This document shows, in pieces, positions 24,459 through 28,798 of a DNA stretch of 64,000 nt. The notes under the pieces are model-generated. The model had not been told where the DNA came from. It made no database searches and saw only the letters and a list, made by a program, of their open reading frames with translations. The DNA is from Escherichia coli (lineage in GTDB: Bacteria > Pseudomonadota > Gammaproteobacteria > Enterobacterales > Enterobacteriaceae), in the NCBI RefSeq assembly GCF_041248615.1, contig NZ_CP158426.1; one strand, 5' to 3'. A program made the translations under genes and the position numbers. The first letter of the stretch is position 1; each line of letters begins with the position of its first letter.

Positions 24459-25820
<1,362 letters not shown>

Positions 25821-25959
25821 AACGTGAGGAAATACCTGGATTTTTCCTGGTTATTTTGCCGCAGGTCAGCGTATCGTGAACATCTTTTCCAGTGTTCAGT
25901 ATGGTGCCTTGCACGGTAATTATGTCACTGGTTATTAACCAATTTTTCCTGGGGGATAA

Positions 25960-27099
25960 ATGAGCGCGGGAAGCCCAAAATTCACCGTTCGCCGCATTGC
26001 GGCTTTGTCACTGGTTTCGCTATGGCTGGCAGGCTGTTCTGACACTTCAAATCCACCGGCACCGGTCAGCTCCGTTAATGGCAATGCGCCTGCAAATACC
26101 AATTCTGGTATGTTGATTACGCCGCCGCCGAAAATGGGAACGACGTCTACAGCGCAGCAACCGCAAATTCAGCCGGTACAGCAGCCACAAATTCAGGCTA
26201 CTCAACAACCGCAAATCCAGCCAGTACAGCCAGTAGCTCAGCAGCCGGTACAGATGGAAAACGGACGCATCGTCTACAACCGTCAGTATGGGAACATTCC
26301 GAAAGGCAGTTATAGCGGCAGTACCTATACCGTGAAAAAAGGCGACACACTTTTCTATATCGCCTGGATTACTGGCAACGATTTCCGTGACCTTGCTCAG
26401 CGCAACAATATTCAGGCACCATACGCGCTGAACGTCGGTCAGACCTTACAGGTGGGTAATGCTTCCGGTACGCCAATCACTGGCGGAAATGCCATTACCC
26501 AGGCCGACGCAGCAGAGCAAGGAGTTGTGATCAAGCCTGCACAAAATTCCACCGTTGCTGTTGCGTCGCAACCGACAATTACGTATTCTGAGTCTTCGGG
26601 TGAACAGAGTGCTAACAAAATGTTGCCGAACAACAAGCCAACTGCGACCACGGTCACAGCGCCTGTAACGGTACCAACAGCAAGCACAACCGAGCCGACT
26701 GTCAGCAGTACATCAACCAGTACGCCTATCTCCACCTGGCGCTGGCCGACTGAGGGCAAAGTGATCGAAACCTTTGGCGCTTCTGAGGGGGGCAACAAGG
26801 GGATTGATATCGCAGGCAGCAAAGGACAGGCAATTATCGCGACCGCAGATGGCCGCGTTGTTTATGCCGGTAACGCGCTGCGCGGCTACGGTAATCTGAT
26901 TATCATCAAACATAATGATGATTACCTGAGTGCCTACGCCCATAACGACACAATGCTGGTCCGGGAACAACAAGAAGTGAAGGCGGGGCAAAAAATAGCA
27001 ACCATGGGTAGCACCGGAACCAGTTCAACACGCTTGCATTTTGAAATTCGTTACAAGGGGAAATCCGTAAACCCGCTGCGTTATTTGCCGCAGCGATAA
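25960..27099 (+). CDS. nlpD: murein hydrolase activator lipoprotein NlpD (LysM + M23 domains)
   Basis: 379 aa; lipobox LAGCS, LysM region, C-terminal M23 domain; directly upstream of rpoS. Confidence 0.93.
26155..26226 (+). repeat. in-frame 24-nt tandem repeat x3 within nlpD (QQPQIQPV-like linker)
   Basis: cagcaaccgcaaattcagccggta / cagcagccacaaattcaggctact / caacaaccgcaaatccagccagta. Confidence 0.8.
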
Positions 27100-27161
27100 A
27101 TCGGCGGAACCAGGCTTTTGCTTGAATGTTCCGTCAAGGGATCACGGGTAGGAGCCACCTT

Positions 27162-28154
27162 ATGAGTCAGAATACGCTGAAAGTTCATGATTTAAATGAA
27201 GATGCGGAATTTGATGAGAACGGAGTTGAGGTTTTTGACGAAAAGGCCTTAGTAGAAGAGGAACCCAGTGATAACGATTTGGCCGAAGAGGAACTGTTAT
27301 CGCAGGGAGCCACACAGCGTGTGTTGGACGCGACTCAGCTTTACCTTGGTGAGATTGGTTATTCACCACTGTTAACGGCCGAAGAAGAAGTTTATTTTGC
27401 GCGTCGCGCACTGCGTGGAGATGTTGCCTCCCGCCGCCGGATGATCGAGAGTAACTTGCGTCTGGTGGTAAAAATTGCCCGCCGTTATGGCAATCGTGGT
27501 CTGGCGTTGCTGGACCTGATCGAAGAGGGCAACCTGGGGCTGATCCGCGCGGTAGAGAAGTTTGACCCGGAACGTGGTTTCCGCTTCTCAACATACGCAA
27601 CCTGGTGGATTCGCCAGACGATCGAACGGGCGATTATGAACCAAACCCGTACTATTCGTTTGCCGATTCACATCGTAAAGGAGCTGAACGTTTACCTGCG
27701 AACCGCACGCGAGTTGTCCCATAAACTGGACCACGAACCAAGTGCGGAAGAGATCGCAGAGCAACTGGATAAGCCAGTTGATGACGTCAGCCGTATGCTT
27801 CGTCTTAACGAGCGCATTACCTCGGTAGACACCCCGCTGGGTGGTGATTCCGAAAAAGCGTTGCTGGACATCCTGGCCGATGAAAAAGAGAACGGTCCGG
27901 AAGATACCACGCAAGATGACGATATGAAGCAGAGCATCGTCAAATGGCTGTTCGAGCTGAACGCCAAACAGCGTGAAGTACTGGCACGTCGATTCGGTTT
28001 GCTGGGGTACGAAGCGGCAACACTGGAAGATGTAGGTCGTGAAATTGGCCTCACCCGTGAACGTGTTCGCCAGATTCAGGTTGAAGGCCTGCGCCGTTTG
28101 CGCGAAATCCTGCAAACGCAGGGGCTGAATATCGAAGCGCTGTTCCGCGAGTAA
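27162..28154 (+). CDS. rpoS: RNA polymerase sigma factor RpoS (sigma-38)
   Basis: ORF 27126..28154 over-extended; start at [17 protein letters not shown] (27162), 330 aa; sigma-70 family regions 2-4. Confidence 0.95.
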
Positions 28155-28170
28155 GTAAGCATCTGTCAGA

Positions 28171-28207
28171 AAGGCCAGTCTCAAGCGAGGCTGGCCTTTT
28201 TCTTTTG
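28171..28207 (+). terminator. rho-independent terminator after rpoS
   Basis: Stem AGGCCAG/CTGGCCT with loop, followed by TTTTTCTTTT. Confidence 0.6.
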
Positions 28208-28274
28208 TTTGGGAAGTCGGTGTGTTTTGTCGCCTGGATAAGACTCGTCAGCGTCCTACCCGGCAATCAGCATC

Positions 28275-28682
28275 CTATTTGCTCATCATCTTGCGCACCA
28301 ACTGCATAAACAGCTCCTTCTCTTCTGCACTCAAACGCCCCAAAAATTCCTCATCCACACTGTCACCAATGGGGATCGCCGCAGCAAGTACCTTTTCTCC
28401 TTCGGCAGTCAGCCAGACAAAGCGACGCCGCTTGTCAGCGGCGTCATGTTCACGTCTGACTAAGCCACGATTTTCCATTCTTGCCAACATTTCTGCCAGC
28501 GTTGCTTTGGTGCTGACTGCTGCTTCTATCAGTGCCACCTGTTCGATACCAGGCTTATCAGCAATGGCGCGCATCACCGCGTACTGTGGTTTGGTGAGGT
28601 TAGGTAACTCGTGCTGCCAGCGAGCCGTGTGCTGCTGAAAAAGCTGTCGTAACTGATGGAACGCTTTATTTCGTAACGCCAT
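28275..28682 (-). CDS. MarR-family (SlyA-like) transcriptional regulator
   Basis: ORF 28275..28715; winged-helix MarR-like region; start placed at MALRNKAF (28682), which has a GGAG RBS; divergent from ecdB. Confidence 0.8.
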   Translation of the reverse strand: MALRNKAFHQLRQLFQQHTARWQHELPNLTKPQYAVMRAIADKPGIEQVALIEAAVSTKATLAEMLARMENRGLVRREHDAADKRRRFVWLTAEGEKVLAAAIPIGDSVDEEFLGRLSAEEKELFMQLVRKMMSK

Positions 28683-28798
28683 GTAAACTCCGGGCAAACT
28701 ATCTGCCGCTATCATAGCGGTTTTTCAGTGACGAAGAAGATGTTGTTACTTTTCAGTGCTTGCCGCGATGAAAACAGAGGCGTATTTTAATAATAACG

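Follow-up and report, generated by a model that had tools for sequence, protein, structure and literature searches.

A 24-nt in-frame tandem repeat in the NlpD tether of Escherichia coli: rare length variation outside the rpoS promoter and leader

An "unusual amino acid repeat" in NlpD is reportedly already named in the title of a 1994 paper by Ichikawa et al. (J Bacteriol 176:1630). The Pro-Gln-rich repeat region of the protein was described by Tidhar et al. in 2009 (PMC2736372); the repeat treated here is this same feature in the same gene, without difference. NlpD is a lipoprotein of the outer membrane, and its activation of AmiC in cell separation is reported in the literature (PMC5533458). 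Its N-terminal linker was predicted to be disordered by Tsang et al., and a fusion carrying only this linker was weakly enriched at midcell (PMC5533458). El Rayes et al. group the linker with the disordered N-terminal linkers of other outer-membrane lipoproteins, like RcsF and Pal, and the repeats belong to the NlpD linker that is classed there as intrinsically disordered (bioRxiv 10.1101/2021.01.05.425367). For RcsF, both the length and the disorder of the linker matter for Lol-dependent sorting. When residues 29-64 of NlpD were deleted in the same study, ~60% of the protein stayed in the inner membrane and the chaining of envC nlpD cells was only partly rescued; the sorting defect was suppressed by deleting lpp. 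According to this work, part of the NlpD linker favors Lol-dependent sorting to the outer membrane. This deletion lies directly upstream of the repeats (residues 66-89) and leaves the repeat units intact.

The nlpD repeat resembles simple-sequence contingency loci and phase-variable genes in that tandem DNA repeats, situated in a gene for an envelope protein, change their copy number by slippage. It differs from them in that the unit length is a multiple of 3 nt, the identity between units is only ~70%, length changes seldom occur and the gene is never switched off. The (Glu-Pro)n(Lys-Pro)n region of TonB is a Pro-rich, periplasm-spanning spacer. It offers a functional analogy only, both stretches being proline-rich, of low complexity, periplasmic and tolerant of length change, whereas the protein, the membrane anchor and the repeat chemistry all differ.

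The window, i.e., the whole stretch of E. coli DNA that was analyzed (64,000 nt), carries an nlpD open reading frame with 100% identity to the gene that E. coli genomes annotate as "murein hydrolase activator NlpD". The encoded protein has a signal peptide ending in a lipobox with its cysteine, followed by a LysM domain and then a C-terminal M23/LytM domain (Table 1). The gene order surE-pcm-nlpD-rpoS is present, according to the open reading frames of the window and the annotated homologous loci. Directly downstream of rpoS, the window contains a MarR-family regulator gene (28275-28715, minus strand), where K-12 has ygbN. This MarR arrangement is common to O157:H7 and several other strains, in which hydroxyarylic acid decarboxylase genes adjoin it, and the region between rpoS and mutS is a known variable region.

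Table 1. Coordinates of the nlpD-rpoS features and of the repeat array in the window.
Feature	Position	Strand	Description
nlpD coding sequence	25960..27099	+	379 aa; murein hydrolase activator NlpD
Lipobox L-A-G-C, residues 23-26	26026..26037	+	Cys26 = lipidated first residue of the mature protein; read from the translation
(CCG)3 run encoding PPP	26121..26129	+	(CCG)2 in strain A30 (alignment)
Repeat unit 1 (u1)	26155..26178	+	CAGCAACCGCAAATTCAGCCGGTA = QQPQIQPV
11-nt exact direct repeat, first copy	26158..26168	+	CAACCGCAAAT; in u1
12-nt exact direct repeat, first copy	26170..26181	+	CAGCCGGTACAG
Repeat unit 2 (u2)	26179..26202	+	CAGCAGCCACAAATTCAGGCTACT = QQPQIQAT; most diverged unit
Repeat unit 3 (u3)	26203..26226	+	CAACAACCGCAAATCCAGCCAGTA = QQPQIQPV
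11-nt exact direct repeat, second copy	26206..26216	+	CAACCGCAAAT; in u3; 48 nt from the first copy
9-nt x2 tandem repeat	26218-26235		TRF
Degenerate fourth unit	26227..26250	+	QPVAQQPV; 3' half = that of u1
12-nt exact direct repeat, second copy	26242..26253	+	CAGCCGGTACAG; 72 nt from the first copy
LysM domain, residues 123-165	26326..26454	+	Pfam, E = 2.7e-12
Main rpoS promoter rpoSp, inside nlpD	26561..26596	+	-35 TTGCGT 26561-26566; -10 TATTCT 26584-26589; start sites 26594-26596
Peptidase_M23 (degenerate LytM, dLytM) domain, residues 279-372	26794..27075	+	Pfam, E = 4.6e-33
rpoS coding sequence	27162..28154	+	330 aa; annotation in homologous loci

The first-pass annotation of this DNA had reported three in-frame 24-nt units (QQPQIQPV / QQPQIQAT / QQPQIQPV) in the NlpD linker, and both parts of this description hold. 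The translation of the open reading frame 25960-27099 places exactly three consecutive units, in frame with nlpD, at 26155-26226. They encode residues 66-89, inside the N-terminal linker (residues 27-122) and between Cys26 and the LysM domain. As in a VNTR, the repeat is arranged head to tail at a single locus: TRF reports a period of 24, 2.7 copies, 70% matches and a score of 67, the array extending slightly beyond 26226 into a half-degenerate fourth unit. The three units agree at 15 of their 24 positions, and nowhere else in the 64-kb window is a better value reached at period 24; in 50 shuffles of the window, the maximum averaged 7.7 and reached 9 overall. The three-unit repeat is far beyond chance.

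The units are imperfect copies of each other. Three differences separate u1 from u3, all of them synonymous, compared to seven between u1 and u2 and nine between u2 and u3. The QQPQIQ peptide core is identical in all units despite the diverged DNA; as the u1/u3 differences are all synonymous and u2 is further off, the core was conserved while the DNA drifted. The longest exact direct repeats in the array are CAACCGCAAAT (11 nt, 48 nt apart) and CAGCCGGTACAG (12 nt, 72 nt apart), the latter resulting from the 3' half shared by u1 and the fourth unit.

Comparing the repeat number across E. coli genomes had been proposed as a check, an identical number in all strains being the outcome that would speak against copy-number change. 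The census set consisted of 5,426 complete E. coli genomes (complete genomes only), of which 5,420 hold the nlpD region. When a variant-allele probe was ranked by coverage x identity, wild-type genomes tied with true variants, two pieces having been joined; hence, synthetic-allele probes were used with E-value limits set so that wild-type genomes cannot pass, insertions being detectable only for the queried designs. A 48-nt deletion, which leaves one unit, was found in 61 genomes, a 72-nt deletion in two genomes, in which the annotated nlpD is 72 nt shorter, and a 48-nt duplication (five units) in one genome, PapRG-04-4, whose middle unit is chimeric exactly as predicted. Alleles of -24, +24 or +72 nt were not found with these probes among the 5,420 nlpD-bearing complete genomes. 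The repeat number thus varies between strains, in 64 of 5,420 genomes (1.2%), and 98.8% keep exactly three units. A length polymorphism among strains (-48, -72 and +48 nt), the second hallmark of a VNTR, is present but low.

A 102-nt wild-type probe gave <80% coverage or no match in 64 genomes. These are the 61 genomes with the 48-nt deletion, the two with the 72-nt deletion and the divergent RM9387, so the deletion census appears complete. By comparison, 99 sampled nlpD rows (megablast, whole gene or 191-nt probe) were all of wild-type length, except for a 3-nt deletion in strain A30; this random sampling missed variants present at ~1%, but it brought up the divergent allele of RM9387.

Several side observations concern the linker region and the gene as a whole. 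Strain A30, isolated from a baboon, has (CCG)2 at the equivalent of 26121-26129, i.e., an in-frame deletion of 3 nt. Within nlpD, polymorphism is highest in the linker region 26100-26290, where most genomes are 97.4-98.4% identical to the window, vs. ~99.1% across the complete gene. At the last codon of u1 and u3, strains show GTA or GTG in different combinations, which may reflect conversion between units. The nlpD of RM9387 is a very divergent allele that still has three units. At the equivalent of ~26060-26260, the 5' part of the gene in this strain (L001) is only ~86% identical to that of other E. coli and carries an E. fergusonii-type linker, which suggests, from the sequence, an imported recombinant segment. 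No match to the linker region was obtained in 6 of the 5,426 complete genomes, and none to the whole gene in 5; these may be nlpD deletions.

The breakpoints of the length variants are informative. The junctions of the 48-nt duplication and of the common form of the 48-nt deletion are as expected from a crossover within the CAACCGCAAAT copies. Those of the 72-nt deletion fit a crossover within the CAGCCGGTACAG copies, to which the 72-nt duplication is assigned as well. The 72-nt deletion was predicted from CAGCCGGTACAG and then found in the two genomes mentioned above; the 72-nt duplication is represented outside the complete-genome set by an E. coli protein of 388 aa (P0003), the 388-aa allele having the accession HGC2327091.1. 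Strain Z1322HEC0006 illustrates the common event, a precise 48-nt in-frame deletion after which a single u1/u3 chimeric unit remains. Most of the examined junctions fall in 11-12-nt exact direct repeats, while PEC145 differs. Because the units are only ~70% alike, most junctions lie in these exact repeats and the steps are 48 or 72 nt. The expectation that such a repeat is prone to slipped-strand changes in copy number was thus only partly borne out: variation exists and recurs, but it is rare and proceeds in 48- and 72-nt steps, never in steps of 24 nt. The accompanying idea that a change in repeat number alters the length of the NlpD linker is correct, each event changing it by 16 or 24 residues with the frame kept.

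These observations are very probably best explained by an old tandem repeat, imperfect and in frame, in which a degenerate fourth unit follows three units of 24 nt; it undergoes rare length changes at short homologies and plays no role for rpoS. The array encodes residues 66-98, a Pro/Gln-rich part of the N-terminal tether of NlpD. This intrinsically disordered tether joins the lipid anchor at Cys26 to the septal-targeting LysM domain and the AmiC-activating dLytM domain. The divergence between units, mostly synonymous, would suppress ordinary one-unit slippage. What remains would be rare deletions or duplications of the replication-slippage type, at short homologies (mostly CAACCGCAAAT or CAGCCGGTACAG), each shortening or lengthening the tether by 16 or 24 residues with the reading frame intact. 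The resulting length alleles appear to be tolerated and are probably nearly neutral, with no part in the transcription of rpoS or in its leader. The analysis itself shows the anatomy of the array, its place relative to rpoSp, the frequencies of the alleles, their junctions and their separate origins. We infer the slippage mechanism, and likewise near-neutrality, for which the single ground is the survival of one-unit lineages. The most economical reading of the repeat is that of a filler of length and composition in a flexible tether, with a loosely constrained number of units.

The 48-nt deletion is found in diverse backgrounds. Two O157:H7 strains, TW14359 (one unit) and EDL933 (three units), are separated by only 2 SNPs across the 5,012 aligned bases surrounding nlpD, both in rpoS (window positions 27704 and 27949), but TW14359 differs from other one-unit strains by 34-39 SNPs. 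Strain PEC145, also with one unit, is 9 SNPs away from the three-unit MG1655 and keeps a pure u1, i.e., a junction different from that of the others. Moreover, two structures occur downstream of rpoS among the one-unit strains, with ygbN in some and the MarR and decarboxylase genes in others. From the few SNPs to three-unit strains, the distinct junction of PEC145 and the two downstream structures, we conclude that the deletion arose independently at least three times. The O157:H7 group of the TW14359/EC4115/SS17/SS52 type accounts for 28 of the 61 genomes with the deletion, and the allele is consistent within the clone. The deletion is, hence, a marker that can be sized by PCR and that separates TW14359-type from EDL933-type O157:H7. 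The RpoS proteins of TW14359 and EDL933 have different accessions.

Outside E. coli, three units are present in E. fergusonii, E. whittamii and two other Escherichia species. The type strain of E. albertii has four units, and an albertii-like genome has seven, via a recent duplication of a 72-nt block (TRF period 72, 96% matches); this seven-unit allele of the E. albertii type is absent from the set of complete E. coli genomes. Cedecea has two units and a degenerate one, while Salmonella, Citrobacter, Kosakonia and Enterobacter have about one unit within a degenerate Q/P/V-rich stretch. In Yersinia, the Pro/Gln repeat region is absent from the NlpD of all species (PMC2736372). A natural nlpD indel has likewise been described in Salmonella Typhimurium UK-1, in the form of a 12-bp in-frame deletion (PMC3391293). 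It differs from the variants described here in species, in its degenerate repeat context and in size (12 bp vs. 48 or 72 nt).

This distribution bears on the possibility that QQPQIQxx is a functional peptide module with a selected number of units, serving, e.g., as a spacer of defined reach between the outer membrane and the septal peptidoglycan, as a weak midcell-targeting element or as an element interacting with Lol, and that the lineage alleles are adaptive. The peptide core stayed identical between units while the DNA diverged, and the QQPQIQ core is conserved as protein across Escherichia species. Three units are present in 98.8% of the E. coli genomes as well as in several further species of the genus. 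This could indeed mean that a particular length or motif is selected and not just tolerated. The weak midcell enrichment of the linker-only fusion (PMC5533458) and the need for part of the linker in efficient outer-membrane sorting (bioRxiv 10.1101/2021.01.05.425367) point in the same direction, as does the one-unit allele, which is fixed in a clonal O157:H7 sublineage (28 complete genomes) and whose 363-aa protein also occurs in Shigella. However, all Yersinia species do without the repeat region, Salmonella and Citrobacter have it in a reduced form of about one degenerate unit, the number of units ranges from 1 to 7 within Escherichia, and natural one-unit lineages are widespread and successful. 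Furthermore, the deletion that impairs sorting removes residues 29-64 and not the repeats. A selected module is, hence, unlikely.

A narrower proposal concerns the shortened tether only. The 48-nt deletion (-16 residues) has a repeated origin and characterizes an O157:H7 sublineage, and the same 363-aa protein has been recorded from Shigella dysenteriae and S. flexneri. The short form might be adaptive in host-restricted pathogens, not a neutral marker, which we consider quite improbable. If true, a shorter tether could act via AmiC activation, via the outer-membrane sorting load or via envelope properties.

The repeat could also be viewed as a contingency-like locus, where a slippage-prone copy number tunes both the length of the NlpD linker and, via the promoter or leader context, the expression of rpoS. 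Copy-number variants do exist and recur. The repeats are on the same DNA as rpoSp, upstream of it, and the only rpoS transcripts to contain them are the minor ones that read through from nlpDp1/p2 (PMC2676305). The positions were compared by mapping rpoSp onto the window with the rpoS ATG at 27162, in the numbering of PMC1852560 (-35 box at -601 to -596, -10 box at -578 to -573 and start at -568 to -566); the mapped start sites agree with a 5'UTR of 567 nt (PMC10372455). On this scale, the repeats extend from -1007 to -936, while rpoSp covers -601 to -566. The end of the repeats is separated by 335 nt from the -35 box and by 369 nt from the start site, which leaves the array outside both the rpoSp core and the 567-nt leader. 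The first-pass annotation was right that the main rpoS promoter lies inside nlpD; its placement of the repeats just upstream of that promoter does not fit the distance to the -35 box, and the suggested effect of repeat number on the rpoS leader context is not supported.

Published clones lead to the same view. With nlpD-rpoS amplicons that start at -657 (window 26505) and lack the repeats, an rpoS mutant regained high, RpoS-dependent acid resistance (PMC1852560), so rpoS expression does not require the repeats in cis. The authors of the UK-1 genome similarly place the 12-bp nlpD deletion outside the rpoS promoter region and consider an effect on rpoS unlikely (PMC3391293). No Rfam family matched in a scan of 25000-28400. 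A scan of 25800-27200 with the sigma-70 consensus gave no promoter-like site, although it also missed the real rpoSp.

The behavior of the array itself is also unlike that of a contingency locus, which would have near-perfect repeats with high slippage and would switch expression. The units match at ~70%, the longest exact repeats measure 11-12 nt, length varies in 1.2% of the genomes, and ±24-nt alleles are missing from the census. Every change that was observed keeps the frame and has a length divisible by 24, so on/off switching is not possible, and the repeat does not lie between promoter elements. Tuning of rpoS by this repeat is, by position, largely refuted and in our estimation very improbable; the minor read-through nlpD-rpoS mRNA could still be subject to a small effect. 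The nlpD repeat is a low-polymorphism coding minisatellite, not a switch.

Other rearrangements of the locus were encountered among database proteins. P0030 (340 aa, from a single Logan contig) is an NlpD variant without 39 residues of the second linker (QPTITYSE...VPTAS). By homology, this loss equals an in-frame deletion of 117 nt (window 26570-26686) between two copies of CAACCGA. Such a deletion would remove the -10 box and the start site of rpoSp while keeping nlpD in frame, and may be a natural deletion of the rpoS promoter. In P0045, P0087 and P0092, an N-terminal part that is 100% identical to NlpD is fused to a Sigma70_r4 domain, at a total of 403 aa, or to decarboxylase domains of the UbiD type, at 550-560 aa. 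These chimeras suggest natural deletions that begin in the 3' part of nlpD and end within rpoS or beyond it.

Finally, although assemblers can in principle collapse short repeats and the five-unit allele comes from a single genome, there is next to no probability that the repeat or its length variants are chance similarities or assembly artefacts: chance is ruled out by the 15 invariant positions against a maximum of 9 in the whole-window shuffles, the array (<=120 nt) is shorter than typical reads, the one-unit allele was assembled in 61 complete genomes from many laboratories and consistently in TW14359, EC4115, SS17 and SS52, and the junctions are precise and in frame.

The repeat is an ordinary, previously described coding minisatellite. 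Neither a census of its length alleles nor a report of nlpD length polymorphism in O157:H7, including its use as a sublineage marker, was found in the searched literature, the full text of Ichikawa et al. (1994) being outside its scope; both are minor additions.

For the biology of rpoS, the repeat has little meaning because it lies outside the promoter and the leader. It does offer a clean natural example of repeat units whose sequence divergence confines slippage to a small number of registers, at 48 and 72 nt but never at 24. Moreover, the NlpD tether tolerates changes from -24 to +16 residues in complete genomes, and of +24 residues in one database protein. These tolerated lengths bear on the role of linker length in lipoprotein sorting and in amidase activation.
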